DNA of 64,000 bases from Candidatus Nomurabacteria bacterium GW2011_GWB1_43_19 (GCA_000999465.1 LCGB01000003.1:4252-68251), one strand, 5' to 3'; shown: positions 12,802 to 60,788, counted from the first letter of the stretch. The notes: a model not told the origin generated them from the letters alone. Program-made: numbers and translations.

Positions 12802-13656
12802 ATGAGAAAAAATGTTTTAAATTCCCCGCGCCTTTCGGAATTAAAAAAGCGCCGTCAAAGGGTTTTTTTTGCTAAGATTTTAATCTCCGGACTGGGATTA
12901 CTGGTGATCTTTTTTTTATTGGCATATCTTTCGCGCCTGGAAAGCCTCAATATCGGTGAAATAAAAGTTTCCGGAAACCAATTCTTGGAAACAGAGACGC
13001 TCCGGGTGGCGATAGAAACAGAATTGGCTGGAAAATACTTGTGGCTTTTTCCAAAAACCAATATATTGTATTACTCCAAGAATAGTATTAAAAAAGGGTT
13101 GCAGGACAGATTTAAAAGGATTGGCGACATGACTTTTTCGATTAATGATAATGAAACTCTTGAAATATCTCTGACGGAAAGAACACCAAAGTATATCTGG
13201 TGCGGCATAGAGCCCAAAGAGACACCGGGCAACAAATGTTATTTTATGGATAAAAATGGATATATTTTTGACGAAGCGCCGTATTTTTCCGGCGAAGTTT
13301 ATTTTAAATTTTATGGCCGGACGGATACAGGCGAACCCCTCGGGGCTTATTTTTTAAAACAAAATTTCCGGCAGCTGGTCTGGTTTAAGGATTTTATGAT
13401 TGAACTCGGAATGAAGCCCACCGTCATTTACGCTACGGGCGAAGGAGATATAGAGATTTTCCTTTCCCGGGGCGGGACGCCGGCCGCGGCCCCCAAAATA
13501 CTTCTTCAGGCGGATGCCGATTTCCAAAATGCGGCGGAAAACCTGGAAACGGCGCTCTCCATCGAACCCCTGCAGTCAAAATTTAAAAAAAATTATTCCT
13601 CCCTGCAATACATTGATCTGCGTTTTGAAAACCGAGTAATTTATAAATTTCAATGA
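12802..13656 (+). CDS. Cell division protein FtsQ/DivIB-like (POTRA domain, single N-terminal TM)
   Basis: A basic N-terminus and a TM helix, followed by a POTRA-like region (IGEIKVSGNQFL...). Weakly conserved. Confidence 0.6.
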   Translation: MRKNVLNSPRLSELKKRRQRVFFAKILISGLGLLVIFFLLAYLSRLESLNIGEIKVSGNQFLETETLRVAIETELAGKYLWLFPKTNILYYSKNSIKKGLQDRFKRIGDMTFSINDNETLEISLTERTPKYIWCGIEPKETPGNKCYFMDKNGYIFDEAPYFSGEVYFKFYGRTDTGEPLGAYFLKQNFRQLVWFKDFMIELGMKPTVIYATGEGDIEIFLSRGGTPAAAPKILLQADADFQNAAENLETALSIEPLQSKFKKNYSSLQYIDLRFENRVIYKFQ

Positions 13657-14858
13657 ATAATTTCGGATTTTGGGAGAAACTAAAAAAACCTATTTTTGCT
13701 TTGGCTCCGATGGCAAATATCACCGACTGCGCTTTCCGGCAAATAATCGCCAAATACGGAAAACCAAATGTATTTTATACAGAGTTCGTTTCAGCCGACG
13801 GCCTGGCGCACCCTGTGGCGCAGGAGAAACTTCTGGTAGATTTGAAATACGGGGAAAACGAGCATCCGATTGTGGCGCAAATTTTCGGCGGAAAATCGGA
13901 GAACATCAAAATTGCTTCCGCCTTGTGCAAGGAACTCGGCTTTGACGGTATAGACATCAATATGGGCTGTCCGGACAGGTCGGTGGAAAAACAATGCGCC
14001 GGGGCGGCGATGATGAAAAATCCGAAACTGGCGCGGGAGGTAATCCGCGCGGCGAAGGAAGGCGCGAGCGGATTGCCTATCTCGGTAAAAACTCGCATCG
14101 GTTACAACCCGCCTCCGCCCAAGGGCTTCGGACGGGCAGGTAAAAACGATTATTTATTGGATAAAGAATGGATAAAAACTTTACTTGAGGAGGACTTGGC
14201 GGCGCTTATCATCCATCTGCGCACCCGTAAGGAAATGTCGGATGCGCCCGCACACTGGGAACTGATGCCGCGGATAGTCGCAATCCGAAATGAAATGAGT
14301 AAGAAAACTTTAATTCTAGGCAACGGCGATGCCGTAGATACTGATGATGCCAGAAAAAAGTGCAAAAAATACGGCTGCGACGGGGTAATGCTCGGCCGAG
14401 CGATTTTCGGCAACCCGTGGCTATTTGCCAATTTGGCTCGTGTGAAACACGATTGCCAAATTGAGCATCCCGTTTCAGATTCGCTAGTAAAAAAATCACA
14501 AATTTTAAATAAATTTAAAAAAATATTTTCTCTCGCAACACAGAGCCGGAATAGTGCCGAGCGGAGCGAGTGTGTTGCTGTTAGTAAAAAAAGCGAATCT
14601 GGGGCTGGGATAAGTATTCAGAAAAAATTAAGCGTCATGGTAGAGCACACCAAACTTTTTGAGAAAATGTTTGTAAGCAACCCCCTTCGCCAAGGCTCCG
14701 GCAGGCCAAGCAAGAACTTTGCCGTGATGAAAAAGCATTACAAGGCGTACGTCAACGGCTTCAATGGCGCCAAGGAGCTCCGTATCAAACTAATGGAAGC
14801 CGACAACGCCGAACAGGTGGAAAAAATAACTAATGATTTTTTAGCAAAAATAGAGTAG
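13653..14858 (+). CDS. tRNA-dihydrouridine synthase (with ~50-aa internal/C-terminal insertion)
   Basis: ALAPMANITDCAFRQI, FGG...DGIDINMGCP, GNGD and GRAIFGNPWLF motifs. 401 aa. Confidence 0.85.
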   Translation: MNNFGFWEKLKKPIFALAPMANITDCAFRQIIAKYGKPNVFYTEFVSADGLAHPVAQEKLLVDLKYGENEHPIVAQIFGGKSENIKIASALCKELGFDGIDINMGCPDRSVEKQCAGAAMMKNPKLAREVIRAAKEGASGLPISVKTRIGYNPPPPKGFGRAGKNDYLLDKEWIKTLLEEDLAALIIHLRTRKEMSDAPAHWELMPRIVAIRNEMSKKTLILGNGDAVDTDDARKKCKKYGCDGVMLGRAIFGNPWLFANLARVKHDCQIEHPVSDSLVKKSQILNKFKKIFSLATQSRNSAERSECVAVSKKSESGAGISIQKKLSVMVEHTKLFEKMFVSNPLRQGSGRPSKNFAVMKKHYKAYVNGFNGAKELRIKLMEADNAEQVEKITNDFLAKIE

Positions 14859-14867
14859 AATAACCGC

Positions 14868-15905
14868 ATGCATGATTTAGCCCTATATAGAAAGTACCGG
14901 CCGAAAAACTTCAGGGAAGTCCTGGGACAGGATCACATCGTCAAGGTGCTGGAAAGTTCGGTGGACACCAATAAGGTCTCGCATGCCTATCTCTTCGTCG
15001 GTTCGCGCGGGACGGGTAAGACAACCGTCGCCCGTATTTTTGCCGCCGAAATCGGCGTATCTGCCAATGATATGTATGAAATTGACGCCGCTTCCAACCG
15101 CGGGATTGAGGATATTAAAGAATTGCGCGAGGGGGCGCGGGTCTTGCCCTTTGATTCAAAATTCAAGGTCTACATTATTGACGAGGTGCATATGCTCTCC
15201 AAGGATGCCTGGGGCGCATTATTGAGGATACTGGAAGAACCTCCGAAGCATGTGATTTTCATTTTGGCGACGACCGAATTCCATAAAGTGCCGGAAACCA
15301 TCATTTCCCGTTGCCAGGTTTTTACTTTCAAGAAGCCAACCGAAGCGGTTTTGCGCAATCTTCTCGGGAGCGTGGCGGAGAAGGAAGAGTTTGAACTGGA
15401 CGCCGGCTCAGCCGAACTCCTGGCGATTTTAGCCGACGGTTCCTTCCGCGACGCGCTGGGAGAACTGCAAAAAATCCTGAATTTCAGCAAAAATAAGAAA
15501 ATAAAAAGAGAGGATGTGGAAAAACTGACCGGCGCGCCGAAAGCGACCCTAGTCAACGATTACATCTCTGCCATCGCCGAGAACGACCTGGAGAAGGGGA
15601 TTAGCGCCGTCCGGGCGGCGGCGGAAACCAATCTGGATATGAAATTGTATTTCAAACTTATAATCCAGAAATTCCGTGCGGCCATCATCTTGCGCTACGC
15701 ACCGAAACTGAAAAATAAAATGACCGGGGACTTAGGCGAAGCCGATTTAAAGTTTTTGGAGGGTCTGGTTAAAGAAGATAAAGACGGCATGCTCCGCTCG
15801 CAGGCGCTGGCGACTCTCCTGGGGTCCTATCAGGACATGGACAACGCCTTTATCGCGGAACTACCGCTAGAACTTGCGCTAGTCCGTATAATAAGTAAGG
15901 AGTAA
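14868..15905 (+). CDS. dnaX: DNA polymerase III subunit gamma/tau (short form)
   Basis: YRPKNFREVLGQDHI, Walker A GSRGTGKTT, DEVHML and SRCQ motifs. 345 aa. Confidence 0.85.
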   Translation: MHDLALYRKYRPKNFREVLGQDHIVKVLESSVDTNKVSHAYLFVGSRGTGKTTVARIFAAEIGVSANDMYEIDAASNRGIEDIKELREGARVLPFDSKFKVYIIDEVHMLSKDAWGALLRILEEPPKHVIFILATTEFHKVPETIISRCQVFTFKKPTEAVLRNLLGSVAEKEEFELDAGSAELLAILADGSFRDALGELQKILNFSKNKKIKREDVEKLTGAPKATLVNDYISAIAENDLEKGISAVRAAAETNLDMKLYFKLIIQKFRAAIILRYAPKLKNKMTGDLGEADLKFLEGLVKEDKDGMLRSQALATLLGSYQDMDNAFIAELPLELALVRIISKE

Positions 15906-15919
15906 AATACTTAATTAAA

Positions 15920-16312
15920 TTATTCTTTGACTTCTTTAAAAGGATAGACACATGCGTGCATATGCCAGTGTTTAGGGTAAGTGCCCAGTGTTACAAAAAA
16001 ATCGTAATCTCTCTTCCACACCAAAGAATACTTTCTTAATAAAAATTCTTTGAAGGTTTTTCTCATCATTGCCAATAAATAGGGGCTTGGTTCTTTTATG
16101 TGATTATGAGCAGAAACCGAGAATCTCTTTTTTACCTTGAATTTTTTTCCTTTAATTTTAATAAAACAAATAGGGTTAAGAACAAAAAAACCGTACCTAT
16201 TTTCAAAAAGAAAAGTATTTCTGAGTAAATTCCTTCTTTCACATAAATCGCAATTTTTCTTCTTCATAATAAAACTCCACTGTATTATTTCATGGGGCGG
16301 GGAATAAAACAA
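15920..16312 (-). CDS. HIT (histidine triad) family protein
   Basis: CDLCE zinc-binding N-terminal region and the histidine triad HWHMH near the C-terminus. The true start may be the internal Met (MKKKNCD). Confidence 0.6.
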   Translation of the reverse strand: MFYSPPHEIIQWSFIMKKKNCDLCERRNLLRNTFLFENRYGFFVLNPICFIKIKGKKFKVKKRFSVSAHNHIKEPSPYLLAMMRKTFKEFLLRKYSLVWKRDYDFFVTLGTYPKHWHMHACVYPFKEVKE

Positions 16313-16327
16313 TTCAACCCTTCAACT

Positions 16328-16366
16328 TAATAGTATAATAGATACGGCCGCTACCATTATACTATT
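16328..16366. repeat. AT-flanked GCGGCCGC-core palindromic element (copy 1)
   Basis: AATAGTATAATAGATACGGCCGCTACCATTATACTATTA. Lies between the HIT gene and tRNA-Gln. Confidence 0.7.
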
Positions 16367-16449
16367 ACTAGCAAAATGCTGAATTATTCAAGAAAATATG
16401 TTAATCTGGAATTATCAAGTTTGAAAAGTAAATGATTTGTCCGTAAAGC

Positions 16450-16520
16450 TGGGAGATCGTCTAATGGTAGGACTCCTCCCTTTGAAGGAGGCTATTTTGG
16501 TTCGAATCCAAATCTCCCAG
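16450..16520 (+). tRNA. tRNA-Gln (anticodon TTG)
   Basis: TGGGAGATCGTCTAATGGTAGGACTCCTCCCTTTGAAGGAGGCTATTTGGTTCGAATCCAAATCTCCCAG. Anticodon loop CTTTGAA; T-loop TTCGAAT. Confidence 0.75.
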
Positions 16521-16735
16521 CTTTGCGGATGAGTTGAAACTGTGAATCTTAGTTCGCCTGCCCGAAATGAATTTCATTAAACTTTTATTTTTAGTTCAAC
16601 TACAAAAGATTATTAAATTCCGAAGCGTTGAAGAAGGATAAGTTTGGGGTATAATATGGGTGCTCCGTAGTCTTGACGAAGGACACCAAGTCTTCCAGCC
16701 AGGTTTAAAAACTATATTTTTGATATAATTGCATC

Positions 16736-17194
16736 ATGGATAATTTTTTGTCCAAAATTTTAGAAGCGATTAAAAAGTTGGGAATAAAACCTATTATTTA
16801 TGGTTCATTTGGAGTAGTTAATTATCTCGGAAATTTTAAAAAATTTGAAGACATAGATATTTTAATTGATGATGAGTTTGTAAATAAAAGATGGGAAGAA
16901 TTTAAAAAACTTCTTGAGGGTAGTAATTTTAATTTAGTTGATGAAAATGAACATGAATTTGAGTTGGATAATAAAAAAGTAGGATTTGCTTCAAAAAATA
17001 TATTAATAAGAGATAAAATAATAAATGATTACTCAGAATTAATTCAATACAAAAATACCAATGCTTTGACTTTAAAGCCAGAAGATTTTCTAGTAGCATA
17101 TAAATTTAGTATAAAAGATGGTTATCGTATTAATACGAGGGAAAAGAAAGATAAAGATATCATAAATATGTTAGAAGCTTATCTTGTTCGTTAA
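16736..17194 (+). CDS. Minimal nucleotidyltransferase, Lnu(A)/LinA-like architecture (possible lincosamide/antibiotic nucleotidyltransferase)
   Basis: IIYGSFGVVNYLGNFKKFEDIDILID resembles a Pol-beta-type NTase GS...[DE]x[DE] motif. The ~150-aa size and C-terminal region parallel Lnu(A). It sits in the AT-rich islet. Leaderless promoter TTTGATATAAT lies 6 nt upstream. Confidence 0.55.
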   Translation: MDNFLSKILEAIKKLGIKPIIYGSFGVVNYLGNFKKFEDIDILIDDEFVNKRWEEFKKLLEGSNFNLVDENEHEFELDNKKVGFASKNILIRDKIINDYSELIQYKNTNALTLKPEDFLVAYKFSIKDGYRINTREKKDKDIINMLEAYLVR

Positions 17195-17249
17195 ATAAGT
17201 TCAAACTTCGCACCACACGCCCAACCAATGAATTTGATATAATCTAAAC

Positions 17250-17720
17250 ATGAAAGAGTCTAAGAAAAACTTCCATAACGCCGAAATATTATCAGTGATT
17301 TCTCGTGCAGTTGAATGGGCGGAGAAACAAGCGGATAGAATACTAAAAGAGGGAGAACCACTAAATCCATCAGAGGTTGAACTCGCTAGAATAGCCGGGG
17401 TCCGATGCCCAGAAAGAGTACGCATTCTTAAGGTCTCAAACATGCCGACACCCGAGGACCCTAAGTTTGCTGAAGCAGCTAAAGCAAATGGTTTCCTTTG
17501 GGAACAGATAAAAGGGTTAACGCTAGGATACGGAATTTATATTATGGAAGAGTATAAATCAGCCCGATTGGTATCTCACGAACTTCGTCATGTTTTTCAA
17601 TTTGAGCAGACAGGGTCACTCTCTATCTTTTTGCAAAAATACCTCCAACAACTTATATCATTTGGGTATGACAATGCACCCTTTGAAATAGATGCCCGGA
17701 AACACGAACAAGGTCACTAA
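17250..17720 (+). CDS. DUF4157-like HExxH zinc-metallopeptidase-domain protein
   Basis: SHELRHVFQFEQ matches the HExxHxxQ signature of DUF4157. An identical TTTGATATAAT box lies 7 nt upstream of the ATG. Confidence 0.5.
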   Translation: MKESKKNFHNAEILSVISRAVEWAEKQADRILKEGEPLNPSEVELARIAGVRCPERVRILKVSNMPTPEDPKFAEAAKANGFLWEQIKGLTLGYGIYIMEEYKSARLVSHELRHVFQFEQTGSLSIFLQKYLQQLISFGYDNAPFEIDARKHEQGH

Positions 17721-17743
17721 ACTATATTAATACGGTTATTAAA

Positions 17744-17786
17744 TGTTATAAATTCTGCGATAGCAGAAATTGTAACAAAAAAATTA
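17744..17786 (+). promoter_or_regulatory. Conserved promoter/operator-like motif (copy 2), upstream of GNAT gene
   Basis: GTTATAAATTCTGCGATAGCAGAAATTGTAACAAAAAAATTA. Confidence 0.45.
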
Positions 17787-17914
17787 TGTTAAGAGTGCAA
17801 TGAACCAAGCATATGCCCCCAATTACTTACGAAGATTTTACAAAGGAAAATATACGTATTCGTATACGTATATGAGTACGTATCTAAATATTTTTTGGTA
17901 TAATCAATTCCACA

Positions 17915-18430
17915 ATGGAAACAAAAATAATAATAGCCGGGCCGGAACATTGGCAGGAATACAAGACAATCAGGTTGAAGGCGCTAAAGGCCGACCCGAT
18001 TGCCTTCGGTGTTACATATGAGCAGGATGTTTTGCTGTCCGAAGAAGAATGGAAGGAAAGATTGTTCAACCCGTTTAGCCAGACCTACCTTGCCATGGCG
18101 AACGACAAGCCGGTAGCTCTAGCCACCGTGCGGCGCGAGAAAGCAAAAAATGTTGAACACCTGGCCACAATCAATTCCGTGTTCACTGATCCGGAATTTC
18201 GCCAACATGGGATTAGCTCCAAGATCCTTAAGAATATTCTTGATGACCTGCATGCCAACGATAAGACGGTGAAAGTCCGGCTCAGCGTGAATGTAGCCCA
18301 GGAATCTGCCCGAAAAATGTATGAAAAGAGTGGATTTTTCAAAGTGGCGATCCTGCCAAAAGAAATGAAAGTAAACGAAAAATACTACGACCAAATAGAA
18401 ATGGCGTATATATTTAAAGACAAGCTATAA
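17915..18430 (+). CDS. GNAT family N-acetyltransferase
   Basis: Acetyl-CoA binding motif region FRQHGISSKILKNILDD, and the 171-aa size. Confidence 0.8.
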   Translation: METKIIIAGPEHWQEYKTIRLKALKADPIAFGVTYEQDVLLSEEEWKERLFNPFSQTYLAMANDKPVALATVRREKAKNVEHLATINSVFTDPEFRQHGISSKILKNILDDLHANDKTVKVRLSVNVAQESARKMYEKSGFFKVAILPKEMKVNEKYYDQIEMAYIFKDKL

Positions 18431-18671
18431 AAATTATATATTTTAATACGTATTGGCGGGTTTTTACCCGGTATGGTAAAATAAGGTATGGCTTTTTTGG
18501 AATACATTAAAACACCGGAAGGATTTTTAAGTTTAAGCGGAGTTGTTCTTTCGTTGGTTACTATTTTAACCAGAATATTTGTTGGATTTAAATCTGACAA
18601 ATAATTTTTATTAGAAGAGAATGGCCTTATTGGCGCTTTCTTATGGTTGATAAAATGGTATAATTATTGTA

Positions 18672-18908
18672 ATGAAACATAAATACAAAATTCGTTTAAT
18701 TGAATTTTTTATTGTGGGTGTTTTGTTCGGCATTATCGAAGACTTAATTGCTATTACCATGGCGACAGAAGGAGTGTTTGAATGGAGATATCTTAGCACC
18801 GCCGCTATTGTCGCTATTCCTTTCGCCTTCATAAGTGAAATCGTAGTTGACCATCCTAATTTTTGGAAATATTTTCTACCAAAACATTGGTTCGTTACAG
18901 ATGATTAA
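18672..18908 (+). CDS. Hypothetical small membrane protein
   Basis: Two predicted TM helices. TGGTATAAT extended -10 lies 7 nt upstream of the ATG. Confidence 0.4.
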   Translation: MKHKYKIRLIEFFIVGVLFGIIEDLIAITMATEGVFEWRYLSTAAIVAIPFAFISEIVVDHPNFWKYFLPKHWFVTDD

Positions 18909-18927
18909 AATTTAATATACTATAAAA

Positions 18928-19074
18928 ATGAGTGTAAATAAAACTTTAAATAAATTTTCCGGCTATGCCCCGGTGGTCCTCCGCGTGGGACTCTCTTTAG
19001 TGTTTTTGTGGTTCGGTTCGGAGCAAATATGGAAGCGATGCCTGGTGCCTGGACAGATTTTTAAGCAAAATTGA
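18928..19074 (+). pseudogene. DoxX-family membrane protein, N-terminal fragment (truncated)
   Basis: MSVNKTLNKFSGYAPVVLRVGLSLVFLWFGSEQIW resembles a DoxX N-terminus. It terminates after 48 aa and overlaps the guaB start. Confidence 0.35.
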
Positions 19075-19106
19075 CTGATATAATTTTTCCGTGTATATTT
19101 GAGTTA

Positions 19107-20585
19107 ATGAAAAGAAATACTTCAATACCTAAAAATTTAGGACAGGGGCTGACTTTTGACGATGTATTACTCGTGCCGAATTACAGCGAAGTCCTGCCAA
19201 AAAACGTAATAACCGAAACCCGCCTGACCAAGAATATAAATCTCCATATTCCGTTCATGTCGGCGGCCATGGACACGGTCACCGAAGCCAGGATGGCGAT
19301 AGCCATAGCGGAGCAGGGCGGCATCGGCATCATTCATAAAAATCTTTCCATCGCCGACCAGGCGCGCGAAGTGGAAAAAGTCAAAAGATACGAATCCGGC
19401 CGGATTACCAATCCGGTGACAGTTTCGGCCGACGCGACAGCCGGCGACGTGTTTGCTATCCAGAAAAAATATCATTTCGGCGGCTTTCCGGTTTTGGATA
19501 AAAACGGATTTTTGGTGGGCATCGTTACCAACCGGGACATGCGCTTCCAGAAAGACGCTTTCGCTCCGATAGCGAAAATAATGACGACCAAACTCATAAC
19601 CGGCGGACCGCACACCACGGTAGAGGAAGCGAATAATTTATTCAACAAGCACGGCATAGAAAAGCTTCCATTGGTGGACAAAAACAACAAGTTGGTCGGA
19701 ATGATTACTTACCGGGATATCGCCAAAAGCAAGGAATACCCGAATGCCACCAAGGACAAGCTGGGCCGGCTCCGGGTCGGAGCCGCCATCGGCACGGGAG
19801 CCGACGCGCTCATCCAGGTGGACGCGCTGGTTAAGAACGACGTTGACGTGGTATGCGTGGATACCGCCCACGGGCATTCCAAAGGGGTGCTGGATGTGGT
19901 GAAAAAAATCCGCCGGGCCTACCCGAAGCTTGATATTATCGCCGGAAACGTGGCCACCGAAGAAGCGGCCCTGGCTCTGATTAAAGCGGGGGCTAACGCC
20001 ATTAAGGTCGGTATCGGCCCGGGTTCAATCTGCACCACCCGCATCGTTTCGGGAGTCGGCGTGCCGCAACTTTCAGCCGTGTCCACGGTCTACCGGGCCT
20101 GTAAAAATTTGAATATTCCGGTCATCGCCGACGGAGGTATCAAGCATAGCGGCGACGTGGTCAAGGCGCTGGCTTTCGGGGCCGATGCGGTTATGTCCGG
20201 GTCAATGTTTGCCGGCACCGATGAGTCCCCCGGTGACACGATTATAATAAATGACCAGAAATTCAAAAAGTACCGCGGGATGGGTTCGCTCGGAGCCATG
20301 CAAAGGGGCTCTAAAGACCGTTATTTCCAGGAAGACCAACATGATTTAACCAAGCTCGTTCCAGAAGGAGTTTCTGGACATGTGACCTACAAAGGCGCGC
20401 TTTCGGAAATTATCCATCAACATATCGGAGGGCTCCGCGCCGGCATGGGCTATCTGGGAGCATCCAATATTTCAAAATTACGCAATGCTTCTTTTTATAC
20501 CATTACCGGAGCGGGCTTAAATGAAAGTCATGTGCATGACATTTTTATGGTCAGCCCCGCTCCGAATTACAAAAAACAACATTAA
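19107..20585 (+). CDS. guaB: IMP dehydrogenase
   Basis: [13 protein letters not shown] pair, catalytic [11 protein letters not shown] loop and GGLRAGMGY. The track ORF starts at 19071; Met 19107 is preferred. Confidence 0.9.
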
Positions 20586-20589
20586 AAGG

Positions 20590-21453
20590 ATGCCTAACCC
20601 GGATAAAAACGCTAAAATTACCCCTCTTATCGGATTGCAATGGGGAGACGAAGGAAAGGGCAAGGGCGTGGCCCGCATCGCTTCCGGCTTAACGAAAAAT
20701 GATTTAATTGTCCGGTTCCAGGGAGGGAACAACGCCGGACACACCATCTGGCGGAGGGAAAAGGGCAAGGTGAAATGCTATGTTTTCCATCTTATTCCGT
20801 CCGGGGTCTTCGGCTCCGCCCAAATTCATCTGGGCGCCGGCATGGGCATTCCGCCGTCCCTAATCGGCTCCAGCATTGGAATTTTCAAGGCCTATGTGAC
20901 CAAAGTCGGCGAAGGGCCATTCCCGACCGAACTCGGAGGTGAACAATCCGCTCACTGGTGCCGGGACAAGAAATTTGCGGAAGAAAAAGCCAGATTTCCG
21001 AATCCCGACCCGAATAGTAAAAGCGAGTTTGAGCGGGGGATAGCGCTCCGCCGACTGGGAAGTGAAATCGGCGCGACAACCGGGCGCTTGCGCCGCACCG
21101 GCTGGCTGGACATCCCGCTCTTAAAATACGCCATCCGGATGAACGACGCGGACAAATTGGTGCTGACCAAGCTGGACATCCTGGATAATTTCAAGAAAAT
21201 AAAGGCGTGTACGCATTACCTTATCGGTAGTAAAAAAACTTCGGATATTCCTTTTGACCTGTCGCGAGAAAAAATAAAATGCGTTTATAAGTCCTTTCCT
21301 CTTTGGCAGGGGAAACTTTCCGACTACGGCCGTAAATTGCCGAAAGAGGCCCTGAACTACGTCAAATTTTTGGAAAAAGAACTGGGCGCCAAAATTATCT
21401 ATGTCGGCACCGGCCCGGAAGAACAGCACGTAGTGGAACGCTACTGGAGATAG
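20590..21453 (+). CDS. Adenylosuccinate synthetase-like protein, unusually short (288 aa)
   Basis: N-terminal GDEGKGK...GGNNAGHT and C-terminal GATTGRLRRTGWLD, LTKLDILD motifs of PurA are present. The central ~140 aa of canonical PurA are missing or diverged. Confidence 0.65.
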   Translation: MPNPDKNAKITPLIGLQWGDEGKGKGVARIASGLTKNDLIVRFQGGNNAGHTIWRREKGKVKCYVFHLIPSGVFGSAQIHLGAGMGIPPSLIGSSIGIFKAYVTKVGEGPFPTELGGEQSAHWCRDKKFAEEKARFPNPDPNSKSEFERGIALRRLGSEIGATTGRLRRTGWLDIPLLKYAIRMNDADKLVLTKLDILDNFKKIKACTHYLIGSKKTSDIPFDLSREKIKCVYKSFPLWQGKLSDYGRKLPKEALNYVKFLEKELGAKIIYVGTGPEEQHVVERYWR

Positions 21454-36626: not shown

Positions 36627-36663
36627 ATCTACGTTAAAGTGTAGATACAAAAAACTGAAATAA

Positions 36664-36697
36664 CGCTATGGTAGCGGCCGCTACTATTGTATTATTA
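36664..36697. repeat. AT-flanked GCGGCCGC-core palindromic element (copy 2)
   Basis: CGCTATGGTAGCGGCCGCTACTATTGTATTATT. Lies downstream of Cys-rich gene A. Confidence 0.7.
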
Positions 36698-36738
36698 TGT
36701 GTTTTTTTATTTCAACTATAATCTGCTATAATTGTTCT

Positions 36739-50008: not shown

Positions 50009-50012
50009 GATT

Positions 50013-50051
50013 TATGTTATCACTTTTGGACGGCCGTCAAATTTGATAACA
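50013..50051. repeat. Conserved 3' block of Cys-rich paralogs (copy at gene B) containing palindrome TTTGACGGCCGTCAAA
   Basis: TTATCACTTTTGGACGGCCGTCAAATTTGATAACATTAA is near-identical to 51362-51401 downstream of gene C. Confidence 0.75.
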
Positions 50052-51356
50052 TTAATACATCTCTGCCTGGTAGCACTTTTCGCAATATACAATTTCCGGC
50101 CTATCCGGAGCATAAGAGGTCTCAAATTCCACCGGGCACCTTGCCCCGCCCTGGCGCGGGTCCCCCGCCCCGTGGAAATGATTTTCTTTCTTACACATAC
50201 ATGAACGGTGCCAAAGTTTGAAAGGGTTGGTTCGTTTAACCCGCGCCTGGTGCCGGCAATGAAAACATCTCCTCGGAATAGGTATGTTCATTTTCTTATA
50301 AAAATTCAGTTCGTTCGAGACAATCTTGTAATTTCTCTTGCAGTTTGTGCACGCCAAAATTTCTTCCAGAATTGAATCGCCGACATCATCGATTGATTCG
50401 GGAATTTTTCCCGGCAATAAAGTTTCTTTGCCGGTAGTTTTTTGTATGTTGTTTTGCCAATTATACCCCGCTTCATTTGCTTCTTTTTTCGCAAGCGGAA
50501 ATTGTTCCATAGCGCAAGATTCGTTATAGCCGAAATATGAAAGTTCTACCGGAAAATATTCCCCGTATGAATACTTATTACCTTTTTTATCTAAAAAAGG
50601 CATGGTATCCATGTGCTCCATAATTTTAGGCATAAGTTCCCCATATTGTTCTTTGGTATATTGTTTATTAAAAATGCAATAATTCGTATTGCGTAGCCCC
50701 ACACAGCCGAAAACATGCTTGCAGTTGTGGCAATCGTAAAGAAATTGCGAGTCAACGCAGGCCAAGCAGATTTCCGAATATTTGGTCTGATATGACTTAC
50801 TACAAAGAATGCATTCATATATCCAATTGCTCTCTGACCGGATATTCATGCAGTCCACAATATCTTTGCCTTTCAATATGAAGAAGCTGTACATGACATT
50901 TTCCACGTACCATCCGGAAAAGCACATATAGCAATTCTTGGAAAACCACCAGTCGTGGGTGTATTCGCAGTTCAAGCTGGCAATCCCGTCGTCATTAACA
51001 ATTGCCATGTGCGGGACTCTTTTCATCAACTCAATGAATTGGGCAAAAAATGGCTTTGAAAAATCATAGTCAACCCCGTAACTTTTCGGATCCCATTTAT
51101 CACTCCACCAGCATTTATTGCAGTACACAATAATCCCGGAATCCGGATGGTAAATGGAAATAATTCCTTTGCCGCACAGGTCACATTTGCGATTATAAAG
51201 GGACATATTGTTCCTCCAGGCCCAACGCCTCTGCCTCCGGCAGTCCGGACAAAAGGTTGGCGGGGGAACCTTTATTTTCTCGTAAAATCCGAAATCATCC
51301 GGTTCTATAGTAAAATTCTTTTTGCAATTAACACAATTTTTTATATCCTGTTTCAT
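50052..51356 (-). CDS. Cysteine-rich multi-zinc-ribbon protein, paralog (family member B)
   Basis: Same modules as the 34811 ORF: CVNCKKNFTIEPDDFGFYEKIKVPPPTFCPDCRRQRR ... CVDSQFLYDCHNCKHVFGCVGLRNTNYCIFNKQYTKEQY ... CTNCKRNYKIV..FYKKMNIPIPRRCFHCR ... ETSYAPDRPEIVYCEKCYQAEMY. Confidence 0.7.
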   Translation of the reverse strand: MKQDIKNCVNCKKNFTIEPDDFGFYEKIKVPPPTFCPDCRRQRRWAWRNNMSLYNRKCDLCGKGIISIYHPDSGIIVYCNKCWWSDKWDPKSYGVDYDFSKPFFAQFIELMKRVPHMAIVNDDGIASLNCEYTHDWWFSKNCYMCFSGWYVENVMYSFFILKGKDIVDCMNIRSESNWIYECILCSKSYQTKYSEICLACVDSQFLYDCHNCKHVFGCVGLRNTNYCIFNKQYTKEQYGELMPKIMEHMDTMPFLDKKGNKYSYGEYFPVELSYFGYNESCAMEQFPLAKKEANEAGYNWQNNIQKTTGKETLLPGKIPESIDDVGDSILEEILACTNCKRNYKIVSNELNFYKKMNIPIPRRCFHCRHQARVKRTNPFKLWHRSCMCKKENHFHGAGDPRQGGARCPVEFETSYAPDRPEIVYCEKCYQAEMY

Positions 51357-51361
51357 TTTAT

Positions 51362-51401
51362 TTATATTATCACTTTTGGACGGCCGTCAAATTTGATAAC
51401 A
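51362..51401. repeat. Conserved 3' block of Cys-rich paralogs (copy at gene C) containing palindrome TTTGACGGCCGTCAAA
   Basis: Same sequence as 50013-50051. It directly abuts the start codon of gene B. Confidence 0.75.
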
Positions 51402-53132
51402 TTAATACACTTCTGCCTGATAGCATTTCTCGCAGTATATGATTTCCGGTCGGTTGGGGGCGTAGGATGTTTCAAATTTGTTAAGGCAACCCTTTTTCAT
51501 ACATTTGCGGTGCCAGAGTTTACGTGGGTTACGCAAGACAAACCTGTCTTGTCTGCGACATGAAAAACATTTTTCTGGAATAGGTAGGTTGAGTATTTTG
51601 CATAATGAAAGTTCTAAAGGAATAATTTTGAAAGCGGTTATGCATAAGGGATATTTTTCTTTTTCACTGGAGGAGTTTTGTGAAGAGCATTGAATTGTTT
51701 CTTTTGCAAGATTTTCCTTTATATCGCTAAAAGTTTTCGGCAGATTTTTAGTCAGAAGCGTTATTTGATAATCGCGGGGTGGCCGGTCATACCAGGTGTA
51801 ACCCTTTTTAAGGACTTCATTTTTGGTTAGGGGGAAATAATCTTGCGCCATTGACTCGTTGTAGGCAAACGGTGAGACCCGCGCCGGGAAATATTCCCCC
51901 CATTCCTTTGTCTTCCTCATGTGCTCAATTATCTCACTTTTGAGTTTGGTATATTGCTCCTTTGTGTATTGCTTGTTTAATATGCAGTATTGCCCTTTTT
52001 TAAGACCAAAACATCCAAAACAATTATCCGTTGTAAAGCACATATCGCAGTAACATGAATCCGTTATGCTGTTAAAACAACTTCTGATAAACATTGACCG
52101 GTGCGGCGACTCAACCCCTTGAACTTCATACGATAATTCACCAATAATTACTTCCGTGCAATCCTGACAATCAGCCGTCTTAAACCACACATCTTGCATA
52201 TACGCAGTATCTTTAAGAAGATGACAATTAAATACACGTCGTGCTCGTTGCGTACTTCCTATATAATCTCCTGTCGAATTTTGAATTTTTGAACCATGAT
52301 AATATTTTACCGGAGTACTAATGTTAAGTTCCATAACTTTTTTTTTCGATTCTTCTATGGAACTCCTATTAAATGAAAATTTTTTTAATTTTTCTTCATA
52401 TTGCGTTTTTGTAAGAGCTTTATTAAACCAATAATACTGCCTCTTGCGGAGACCCACACATCCAAAACAATTCAAACATCCCCTACAATCAATACAAAAT
52501 TCAAGTCCGACAGAATCAAAACAATCTTGACACCATACACATTTAGAACACCTTGCAATATTCATACATTCATAACAAAACTCACTTTTAAAGGCCATGT
52601 AGCAGTCGCTTAAAAAGTGACTGTCATGACACCAGCTTCCATACATACACTTTTCATTTGAGCCGCTGGTAACCAGCATATAACACTCCTTGTTGTCCTG
52701 AGACTGGTTTGTGTACTCGCTGTTAACGCTGTTTGAATTAACCATCGCCAGATGTGGCACTTCACGGCGAAGCTCTTCATACTGTTCAAAAAAGGACCGG
52801 CTAAAATCAAAGTCTCGCCCGTAATCCTTGGCATCAAAGGCGTCGGATTTCCAATATTCCTGCTCATACACCGAGAATGGAGCATCTGGGCGATAAATAG
52901 AAATAATGTCTTTTCCTGTAGCGTCGCATTTTCTTTTATAAAAGTTATATTCGTTTCTGTCTAACAAGCGCCTGATGTATCGACAATCCGGGCAAAAGGT
53001 TGGCGGGGGAACCTTTATTTTCTCGTAAAATCCGAAATCATCCGGCTCGATTATAAAATTGCCCTTACAATTCTGACACACCACATTTTGTGATTTATAT
53101 TCCATAACTTTTTTGTCCCGATTCTGATTCAT
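51402..53132 (-). CDS. Cysteine-rich multi-zinc-ribbon protein, paralog (family member C)
   Basis: N-terminal CQNCKGNFIIEPDDFGFYEKIKVPPPTFCPDCRYIRR. The core is richer in CxxC (CSKCVWCQDCFDSVGLEFCIDCRGCLNCFGCVGL; CYCDMCFTTDNCFGCFGL...CILNKQYTKEQY). Also SPFAYNES and C-terminal ETSYAPNRPEIIYCEKCYQAEVY. Confidence 0.7.
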   Translation of the reverse strand: MNQNRDKKVMEYKSQNVVCQNCKGNFIIEPDDFGFYEKIKVPPPTFCPDCRYIRRLLDRNEYNFYKRKCDATGKDIISIYRPDAPFSVYEQEYWKSDAFDAKDYGRDFDFSRSFFEQYEELRREVPHLAMVNSNSVNSEYTNQSQDNKECYMLVTSGSNEKCMYGSWCHDSHFLSDCYMAFKSEFCYECMNIARCSKCVWCQDCFDSVGLEFCIDCRGCLNCFGCVGLRKRQYYWFNKALTKTQYEEKLKKFSFNRSSIEESKKKVMELNISTPVKYYHGSKIQNSTGDYIGSTQRARRVFNCHLLKDTAYMQDVWFKTADCQDCTEVIIGELSYEVQGVESPHRSMFIRSCFNSITDSCYCDMCFTTDNCFGCFGLKKGQYCILNKQYTKEQYTKLKSEIIEHMRKTKEWGEYFPARVSPFAYNESMAQDYFPLTKNEVLKKGYTWYDRPPRDYQITLLTKNLPKTFSDIKENLAKETIQCSSQNSSSEKEKYPLCITAFKIIPLELSLCKILNLPIPEKCFSCRRQDRFVLRNPRKLWHRKCMKKGCLNKFETSYAPNRPEIIYCEKCYQAEVY

Positions 53133-60625: not shown

Positions 60626-60745
60626 TAGTTAGTTTTTACAGCGCAAAGATCAGCTCTCTAATTTGAGGGCTGAAAAAGAAAACATTGCTGATTTGCATTA
60701 TATTTTTGTTCACTTGCACCTTTTGTTTCATTGCTTCAAATCATA

Positions 60746-60780
60746 ATAATATAATAGCAGCGGCCGCTTTTATTATACTA
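60746..60780. repeat. AT-flanked GCGGCCGC-core palindromic element (copy 3)
   Basis: ATAATATAATAGCAGCGGCCGCTTTTATTATACTA, immediately after the trpA stop. Confidence 0.7.
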
Positions 60781-60788
60781 TTTAGGTA

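Follow-up and report, generated by a model that had tools for sequence, protein, structure and literature searches.

Introduction

The closest described counterparts of the locus treated here are tRNA-linked islands with tandem, repeated tRNA 3' ends and, among single proteins, the nucleotidyltransferases ANT(2'')-Ia, LnuA and MenT1 and the DUF4157 metallopeptidases. Large serine recombinases do not need long repeats. DUF4157 is known as an HExxH domain of about 80 residues that occurs in type VI secretion (T6SS) effectors and in toxin-associated proteins of extracellular contractile injection systems (eCIS) (PMC6899460, PMC8213781). In this study, a window of 64,000 nt from Candidatus Nomurabacteria (Patescibacteria), i.e., the whole stretch of DNA that was analyzed, is described with respect to its AT-rich islet at positions 15906–19075. 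The islet lies between dnaX and guaB at tRNA-Gln and encodes a minimal nucleotidyltransferase (NTase), a small HExxH protein and a GNAT N-acetyltransferase. It is read here, with a probability of about 0.7, as an accessory region of mosaic make-up that is specific to the species and lies in a hypervariable hot spot of integration downstream of dnaX–tRNA-Gln. As such, it is a real but fairly ordinary instance of a tRNA-linked hot-spot feature and holds little surprise for the specialist. Compared loci and proteins are labelled with L- and P-numbers, respectively.

Results

Conserved anchor and variable downstream region in relatives

Species-representative genomes were scanned with DnaX, which yielded 80 loci with 72–84% DnaX identity, and 10 kb downstream was taken from each. 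The order ftsQ-like–dus–dnaX was conserved across these loci, and tRNA-Gln followed just after dnaX in nearly all of them. The genes for the NTase, the HExxH protein, the GNAT, a small membrane protein and a HIT-like protein were found in 0 of the 80 loci within the 10 kb (tblastn, E 1e-2). The 622 downstream open reading frames (ORFs) fell into 390 clusters, the commonest family being present in at most 16 loci, and guaB–purA–HAD–cofD followed at a distance of 0.8 to 7.8 kb in a subset. Since no core gene order was conserved in the 80 relatives, the region is accessory. The initial annotation of the islet, made from the window sequence, had proposed an accessory region at tRNA-Gln and a synteny comparison with related genomes; this comparison bore the proposal out, as dnaX–tRNA-Gln was kept in relatives that lack the islet genes. 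Neither a core gene order nor a housekeeping family for the NTase was found.

Large serine recombinases (Resolvase, Recombinase and Zn_ribbon_recom domains) were encoded in nine of the related loci. In four of these (L033, L034, L041 and L060), the 3' end of the recombinase gene adjoined or overlapped the 3' end of tRNA-Gln. L041 represents an occupied site, with about 7 kb between the tRNA and HAD–cofD that end in a recurrent intergenic module, described below, and a decayed copy of the tRNA 3' end. In the matching empty site, L013, HAD–cofD directly follows the tRNA, and L079 is near the empty state (tRNA, module, then guaB). The gap between dnaX and the tRNA holds GIY-YIG genes or a 231–235-amino-acid ORF in other species, and the HIT-like ORF in the window. 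On this comparative evidence, tRNA-Gln is a genuine integration site in the clade and the region a hypervariable hot spot. A literature search on serine-recombinase prophages in Patescibacteria gave nothing directly relevant.

The 231–235-amino-acid ORF between dnaX and tRNA-Gln, which has no Pfam match, was seen in eight species (L017 9625–10332 and seven further loci), and its motif LIGVALYWAEGSK resembles the LAGLIDADG homing-endonuclease motif. In eight further relatives, the tRNA is flanked by GIY-YIG genes.

Alternatively, the block could have been ancestral to the clade and lost many times, so that the variability would reflect genome reduction rather than integration. Three nearby genes (DoxX, tRNA_bind and purA) are visibly decaying, the HExxH and GNAT genes have a host-like GC content, and a HExxH gene also stands just after dnaX–tRNA-Gln in a distant member of the Paceibacteria (L097). 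However, the islet genes were not kept in any of the 80 relatives, even as fragments (tblastn, E 1e-2), and the site carries recombinases as well as att remnants. Moreover, the NTase occurs elsewhere in the genomes of the same relatives (P0008, close to the beginning of the contig with L034) and is a compositional outlier in every host. Repeated loss of an ancestral block was therefore considered very unlikely.

Layout of the islet

The features were placed by ORF listing, ARAGORN and direct reading. All ORFs, the tRNA-Gln, the protein motifs and the TTTGATATAAT and TGGTATAAT boxes of the initial annotation were recovered where it had put them. From the upstream to the downstream flank, the locus reads as follows:

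End at 15905: dnaX, upstream flank
15920–16267 (or 16312), minus strand: possible HIT-like ORF of 115 amino acids (130 amino acids from the TTG at 16312), in the slot between dnaX and tRNA-Gln
16329–16366, no strand: palindrome AATAGTATAAT...CGGCCG...ATTATACTATT, from direct reading
16450–16521, plus strand: tRNA-Gln(UUG), the conserved anchor (ARAGORN, Rfam)
16534–16556, plus strand: decayed direct repeat (20/23 match) of the 3' half of tRNA-Gln, from the anticodon loop to the T arm
16719–16729, plus strand: TTTGATATAAT, extended -10 box of the NTase gene, predicted leaderless promoter
16736–17194, plus strand: minimal NTase of 152 amino acids, ANT(2'')-Ia/LnuA/MenT1 fold
17197–17242, plus strand: recurrent intergenic module AAGTTCAAACTTCGCACCACACGCCCAACCAATGAATTTGATATAA, probable att remnant (nhmmer)
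17233–17243, plus strand: TTTGATATAAT box of the HExxH gene, its first 10 bases inside the module
17250–17720, plus strand: stand-alone HExxH zincin of 156 amino acids, DUF4157/VgrG2b C-terminal fold
17812–17907, plus strand: remnant of a tRNA_bind (CsaA-like) gene with palindromic terminator and next promoter (blastn to L007)
17896–17904, plus strand: TGGTATAAT box ahead of the GNAT gene, the next promoter after the tRNA_bind stub
17915–18430, plus strand: GNAT N-acetyltransferase of 171 amino acids (Pfam)
18656–18664, plus strand: TGGTATAAT box of the small ORF, ending 7 nt before its ATG
18672–18908, plus strand: orphan two-helix membrane ORF of 78 amino acids (ORF listing)
18928–19074, plus strand: DoxX-like fragment of 48 amino acids, pseudogene remnant (comparison with relatives)
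Start at 19107: guaB, downstream flank

The identical islet was present in several samples of the same species, and exact copies of its proteins came from Candidatus Nomurabacteria assemblies.

tRNA-Gln, its 3'-half remnant and the intergenic module

No repeat of the exact 3'-terminal 23-mer of the tRNA (up to 3 mismatches) or of shorter ends was found in the window and the nine recombinase-bearing loci. A repeat of the 3' half emerged from the cross-species comparison only: 16534–16556 (TTGAAACTGTGAATCTTAGTTCG) agrees in 20 of 23 positions with the part of the L071/L053 tRNA-Gln allele that runs from the anticodon loop to the T arm, and 0 of 100 shuffles matched. The tandem arrangement of tRNA and 3'-half copy was also seen in L053, L020 and L015. 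The direct repeat of the tRNA-Gln 3' end that had been suggested as an integration boundary thus exists as a 3'-half copy, but the exact 3' end is unrepeated, and the copy is decayed and found on the tRNA-proximal side only. Judging by its sequence, the remnant in the window seems to derive from an inserted form like that of L020 (GTTCGCCTGCCCG...).

In L020, the T loop within a pseudo-copy of the tRNA-Gln 3' half (2264–2340) is interrupted by a palindromic insertion of 18 nt, CCTGCATGCGCAGGCATG.

The acceptor stem of tRNA-Gln is lengthened by about 9 complementary flanking bases, TCCGTAAAG / CTTTGCGGA (16440–16457 and 16512–16529). The downstream flank TTTGCGGAT is kept in several relatives, and CCA is not encoded. 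The extended stem may be a processing stem of the pre-tRNA. In a search of the islet spacers for structured RNAs, the tRNA alone passed in Rfam.

Three elements make up the module, which is about 46 nt long and separates the NTase gene from the HExxH gene: a conserved arm (GGTTCCAACnTCGCACCAnAC), a pseudo tRNA acceptor end, and TTTGATATAAT, whose first 10 bases are overlapped by the 3' end of the module. With a nhmmer profile from four copies, 24 matches were obtained at E up to 1; they came from 18 sources, namely the window and 17 relatives, and 23 of them lay downstream of dnaX. In L071, the 3' part of the module is identical in 24 of 25 positions to the tRNA-Gln end and the promoter directly after the tRNA. 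In L050, a 28-nt repeat is identical in 26 of 28 positions. No inverted repeat was found in the module or its flanks. The module is probably an att-type remnant. The frame of tRNA-Gln, one ORF, module and one further ORF was occupied by unrelated genes in four species:

Window: slot 1, NTase; slot 2, HExxH protein
L050: slot 1, SET domain protein; slot 2, membrane protein
L071: slot 1, DsrE; slot 2, tRNA_bind
L081: slot 1, LapA_dom; slot 2, MazG-like protein

A bolder and rather doubtful proposal is that the tRNA-Gln locus of Nomurabacteria is a cassette array, in which the module marks recombination junctions and supplies a leaderless promoter to promoterless ORFs. If this were the case, single genes such as those for the NTase or the HExxH protein could be exchanged and would be expressed immediately on arrival; the locus would be integron-like in function, although its basis would be serine recombinases and an att site in a tRNA gene.

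Ancestral remnants and base composition

Two of the islet features have counterparts in relatives. A DoxX gene precedes guaB in L007, L027, L070 and L071. The DoxX ORF of the window combines the N-terminal ~33 codons of such a gene with its last ~45 nt in another reading frame, which corresponds to an internal deletion of about 270 bp. The fragment at 18928–19074, annotated at first as part of the islet, is present, but it is best described, from this comparison, as a decayed ancestral neighbour of guaB and not as acquired cargo. Similarly, the region 17812–17907 matches L007 in blastn (13566–13610 and 13913–13973): the first 11 codons of a tRNA_bind gene (MPPITYEDFTK) are followed by a palindromic terminator and a promoter, the same as in L007. 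The homologue of this stub in L071 has a Pfam tRNA_bind match. The promoter after the stub precedes the GNAT gene in the window and an unrelated 141-amino-acid ORF in L007. Owing to the DoxX and tRNA_bind remnants and the swapped gene behind the L007-type promoter, the region is a mosaic of gain and decay and not a single insertion.

The islet has a GC content of 0.35, as compared to 0.47–0.53 in the flanks. The drop in GC that had been noted for the islet is therefore real, but it is uneven. With 0.24 (0.15 at third codon positions), the NTase gene has the lowest GC content of the 63 ORFs in the window, while the HExxH gene (0.42) and the GNAT gene (0.45) are close to the window mean of 0.424. 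Values of 0.30, 0.35 and 0.28–0.36 were obtained for the HIT-like ORF, the small ORF and the spacers, respectively. Equally AT-rich 1-kb stretches were found elsewhere in the window. NTase homologues are also far more AT-rich than their own host loci. The NTase gene is the sole strong compositional outlier of the islet.

The idea that the NTase, the DUF4157-type protein and the GNAT arrived together at tRNA-Gln as one compact resistance or defence island had been put forward. In its favour, the genes are neighbours on one strand and are missing in relatives, antibiotic-modifying enzymes typically show NTase and GNAT folds, and GNAT domains are often fused to relatives of the NTase. However, the three genes never co-occurred elsewhere, as judged from the NTase contexts, 73 HExxH loci and the few GNAT relatives. 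Their GC contents differ sharply (0.24 as compared to 0.42 and 0.45), the tRNA_bind remnant and the att-like module lie between them, and there is no relationship between the GNAT of the window and the GNAT domains that occur in fusions with relatives of the NTase. A single acquisition is also at odds with the ancestral DoxX and tRNA_bind remnants, the host-like composition of the HExxH and GNAT genes and the lack of an integrase in the window. With respect to cargo function, the NTase had no match among the antimicrobial resistance (AMR) models of NCBIfam, and none of the six islet proteins had a PADLOC match. Since no PADLOC or AMR model matches, a role in resistance or defence remains a guess, and joint acquisition as such an island is unlikely.

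Promoters

In the initial annotation, the NTase, HExxH and GNAT genes of the islet were each given their own leaderless promoter. The boxes were confirmed. TTTGATATAAT has only two copies in the 64 kb, at 16719 and 17233, and each ends 6 nt before an ATG; TGGTATAAT stops 7 nt short of the ATG at 18672; and five of the nine TGNTATAAT sites of the window fall within 16721–19076. In a nucleotide comparison with other NTase loci, similarity started 9–21 nt before the ATG (16715 to 16727) in three of four loci. However, a TAnnnT box 6–7 nt before the ATG, without Shine-Dalgarno sequence, was found ahead of many first genes across the window, e.g., dnaX, serS and cofD. Shine-Dalgarno sequences are almost absent from the window; example starts are 5757, 10632 (minus strand), 11532, 14868, 22915 (minus strand), 45778 (minus strand), 49121 (minus strand) and 54616. 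This suggests leaderless initiation genome-wide. Since predicted leaderless promoters are usual throughout the window, they do not set the islet apart and were rejected as its signature. What is peculiar to the islet is the succession of four or five near-consensus boxes, one promoter per gene. A literature search on leaderless promoters in the candidate phyla radiation (CPR) gave nothing directly relevant.

The nucleotidyltransferase

The NTase carries the motifs G23-S24 and D39-I-D41 (YGSFG...EDIDIL). It has 111 close relatives with 53–81% identity, the named ones being mostly Paceibacteria, and its family is small (266 clusters among 1.84 billion representatives). D39, D41, Y122 and D139 are invariant in the family, and G23, S24, G26, E72, Y130 and R131 nearly so. 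The score against PF10706 (Aminoglyc_resit) was 19.3 bits (cut-off of 21; E 1.4e-3) and covered the N-terminal half only. Among 80 diverse members, 14 touched PF14907 and 8 matched PF10706 (E up to 0.01). No match was obtained to NCBIfam or AMR models of Lnu or ANT enzymes (E up to 1), nothing meaningful among PDB sequences with profiles of 26 or 80 NTase sequences, and no match of the NTase or the 80 relatives to DUF1814/AbiEii in Pfam. In searches for a phage origin, no IMG/VR and no PHROG match was found.

The AlphaFold2 model of the NTase (mean confidence, pLDDT, of 91) gave the following structural matches, with template modelling (TM) scores:

ANT(2'')-Ia (5kqj, 5cfs, 4wqk): TM 0.62–0.63, E 7e-5 to 9e-4
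MenT1: TM 0.66–0.68, E 1.4e-3
LnuA (4fo1_A): TM 0.62, E 1.7e-3, 18% identity
TM1012: TM 0.57

Thus, the label of an Lnu-like NTase holds for the two-domain fold and the G-S/D-x-D core, but not for the sequence, as every Lnu/ANT sequence model failed.

The neighbours of the NTase gene differed in every relative examined. They included an APH fragment, a nucleoside deoxyribosyltransferase and a radical SAM protein in one relative, NUDIX, phosphatases and a GNAT in another, and a glyoxalase and a HAD protein in a third. At least 9 of 39 long relatives are fused to a GNAT domain; other fusion partners are NUDIX, ASCH, P-loop kinase, alpha/beta hydrolase, Tyr phosphatase and beta-lactamase-family domains. 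The median isoelectric point (pI) of the family is 5.5, i.e., mildly acidic.

The structural comparison also brings in the possibility that the NTase is a MenT-like toxin that extends tRNA acceptor ends, with a neighbour such as the HExxH protein as antitoxin. MenT1 is among the best structural matches, the NTase gene lies beside a tRNA, and MenT toxins are small NTases (PMC10435456). Against a toxin stand the varying neighbours of the NTase and the solitary HExxH family, i.e., the lack of a conserved partner, the missing DUF1814/AbiEii and PADLOC matches, the fusions to GNAT, NUDIX, hydrolase, kinase and beta-lactamase-type domains, which are not antitoxin-type, and the mildly acidic pI. This scenario was regarded as improbable. 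Since no conserved partner was found, and in view of context, fusions and charge, a small-molecule nucleotidyltransferase is favoured; it was given slightly better than even odds, a MenT-type toxin a small share, and the rest was left unassigned. By analogy with ANT(2'')-Ia and LnuA, the NTase most likely acts on a small molecule, to a hydroxyl group of which it would attach a nucleotide, probably AMP.

Two pairings were considered and rejected. MNT–HEPN or toxin–antitoxin pairing was dismissed, as neither the NTase nor the HExxH protein has a conserved partner. Functional pairing of NTase and GNAT was likewise dropped, as the GNAT of the window is not similar to any of 148 NTase-family representatives, GNAT-fused ones included.

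In UniRef and GenBank, the NTase (P0001) is named 'phosphoribosylanthranilate isomerase', for which no support was found. A partial homologue with 71% identity (P0100) is filed under a metagenome-assembled genome of Nanoarchaeota, and transfer or a binning error is possible in this case.

The HExxH protein

The motif HELRHVFQ comprises residues 110–117 of the 156-amino-acid protein. The nearest relative outside the species is 57% identical, and most of the family about 45–50%. The family is found mostly on high-GC, non-CPR contigs, Proteobacteria included, and H110, E111, H114 and E119 are invariant in it. The fold is that of the C-terminal domain of VgrG2b (PDB 6h56), i.e., of the DUF4157 metallopeptidase type. 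With PF13699 (eCIS_core), the protein scored 15.3 bits as compared to a cut-off of 22, over residues 92–120 only, and 18 of 31 relatives touched this model (E up to 0.1; best 3e-5). A PDB sequence search with the family profile returned nothing meaningful. Three IMG/VR matches and one unannotated PHROG were found. The DUF4157 assignment was therefore upheld at the level of fold and motif, but the PF13699 score is below the cut-off, and no toxin, eCIS or T6SS partner and no conserved neighbour was found in 73 loci, nor such a partner in the window.

The further Patescibacteria copies that were found stand close behind a tRNA gene. In L097 (3909–4441), 19 nt separate the homologue from the preceding tRNA-Gln, which in turn closely follows dnaX, and in L094 (3877–4453; L095 similar), 50 nt separate it from tRNA-Gly. 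In about 80 other, non-CPR loci, no tRNA lay within 300 nt of the HExxH gene.

In L101, a metagenome contig of the same species, a 19-bp deletion (position 2433; 17579–17597 in the window) removes exactly CGAACTTCGTCATGTTTTT, the HELRHVF codons, and causes a frameshift; the surrounding genes are 99–100% identical. Either the gene has been knocked out naturally or the assembly is in error. Since the motif is deleted in L101, the HExxH gene is taken to be dispensable.

An antibacterial effector like the C-terminal metallopeptidase of VgrG2b, directed against the host bacterium or competitors, could be suspected, given the invariant H110, E111, H114 and E119 and the link of DUF4157 domains to T6SS and eCIS toxins (PMC6899460, PMC8213781). 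However, the protein has neither signal peptide nor delivery domain, no secretion or injection system is nearby, no immunity-like neighbour is conserved in the 73 loci, the PF13699 score is sub-threshold, and the gene is dispensable as seen in L101. An effector is therefore quite unlikely. From fold and motif, the HExxH protein is predicted to be a small cytoplasmic zinc peptidase.

GNAT, small ORFs and neighbouring genes

The identity of the GNAT was confirmed by scores above the Pfam gathering thresholds (45.4 and 45.9 bits for PF00583 and PF13673, with cut-offs of 20.7 and 23.6). A specific NCBIfam equivalog was not reached, and only six relatives were found, Patescibacteria wherever named. 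The protein would acetylate an amine. The 78-amino-acid ORF had no family match and no match in relatives. The ORF at 15920–16267 contains a C-terminal HWHMHAC (HxHxH) and is a possible HIT-like protein; its sole model match was DcpS_C (E 0.018), below the cut-off, and no relative was found among PDB sequences or in the 80 loci.

The palindrome at 16329–16366 consists of two opposed TAGTATAAT boxes around a CGGCCG core and probably serves as a promoter in both directions, for the HIT-like ORF on one side and tRNA-Gln on the other. Similar CGGCCG-core palindromes with opposed TATAAT-like boxes occur at ~36660–36700 and ~60745–60785, and also at 50012–50060 and 51362–51410; two near-identical copies (ttatcacttttggaCGGCCGtcaaatttgataaca) lie 1350 nt apart. 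The recurrent palindromes are possibly bidirectional promoters or a shared operator.

Beyond the islet, dus (13653–14858) is intact in the window and split into pieces of 107 and 300 amino acids in L002 (2788–4123), which belongs to the same species. purA (20521–21453) has an in-frame internal deletion of about 150 amino acids relative to the 467-amino-acid protein of L007, residues ~104–254 being gone. The deletion junction lies at a repeated HLIPSGVFG...GAGMGIPPSLIG-like stretch. purA of the window is probably non-functional; the adjacent guaB is intact.

Discussion

It is proposed that mobile elements with large serine recombinases insert at tRNA-Gln in this clade. Successive insertions, incomplete deletions and recombination among the conserved intergenic pieces would have produced a series of single, unrelated genes, with decayed copies of the tRNA 3' end and of its native following promoter between them. 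In the window, the NTase gene would have lodged between the tRNA-Gln 3'-half remnant (16534–16556) and the module (17197–17242), the HExxH gene behind the promoter of the module, and the GNAT gene downstream of a promoter whose counterpart in a relative drives another gene. The tRNA_bind gene and DoxX would have been deleted down to stubs. The islet genes would then be independent solitary genes, neither an operon nor a paired system, each transcribed alone from a predicted TGnTATAAT box 6–10 nt before the ATG into a leaderless or near-leaderless mRNA.

Several observations weigh against reading the islet as such a mosaic accessory region. First, no recombinase, integrase, transposase or phage gene was found in 15906–19075 or the window, and no long tRNA-end repeats were found in relatives within the 10 kb fetched. 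Second, the att-like repeats are short and decayed, the tRNA-adjacent one is common to other species, and the repeats give no date for the arrival of the present genes. Since the 5' half of the module is not tRNA-like, its reading as an att remnant stays an inference; it could instead be a regulatory or recombinase-binding sequence. Third, the HExxH and GNAT genes have a host-like GC content, which does not point to a recent foreign origin. Fourth, the NTase fails all ANT(2'') and Lnu sequence models, and its match to the tRNA-modifying toxin MenT1 is about as good as those to the antibiotic enzymes. Finally, the loci compared were all metagenome-assembled.

As a mosaic accessory region, the locus indicates that even CPR genomes reduced to less than a megabase retain a tRNA-linked hot spot of active gene exchange, in which small enzymes have been gained next to older genes in decay. 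The NTase belongs to a family outside Pfam and NCBIfam coverage that has the fold of clinically important antibiotic-modifying enzymes, and its substrate would reveal small molecules that episymbionts must neutralise or tag. In addition, the analysis corrects the isomerase label of the NTase in public records.

Comparison with known systems

Like ANT(2'')-Ia and LnuA, the NTase is a protein of about 150–180 amino acids with an N-terminal pol-beta NTase domain, a C-terminal helical domain and the G-S and D-x-D motifs, and its relatives are often fused to or located beside GNAT, APH or glyoxalase-type genes. It differs in its low identity to them (12–18%), the sub-threshold PF10706 score and the missing NCBIfam AMR and PDB sequence matches. 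With MenT1 (Rv0078A), it shares a comparable fold (TM 0.66–0.68), but it lacks a cognate antitoxin and the DUF1814 signature (motifs III–IV) and has other fusion partners. The HExxH protein has the core of DUF4157/PF13699 and VgrG2b (6h56), and 18 of 31 family members touch PF13699; in contrast to these proteins, it stands alone at about 150 amino acids, without toxin domain, VgrG/PAAR carrier, eCIS locus or immunity gene.

At the level of the locus, integron cassette arrays differ from the window in that the latter has no IntI tyrosine integrase and its module has no inverted repeat that could form an attC hairpin. The likeness to tRNA-linked islands with tandem, repeated tRNA 3' ends comprises the conserved tRNA anchor, the highly variable downstream content, the recombinases adjoining the tRNA in relatives, the decayed tRNA 3' repeats and a cargo gene of atypical composition. 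In contrast to such islands, the copy in the window has no integrase and spans only about 2.4 kb, its units are single genes rather than multi-gene blocks, the recombinases of the relatives are of the large serine type, and the module carries a working-looking leaderless promoter.

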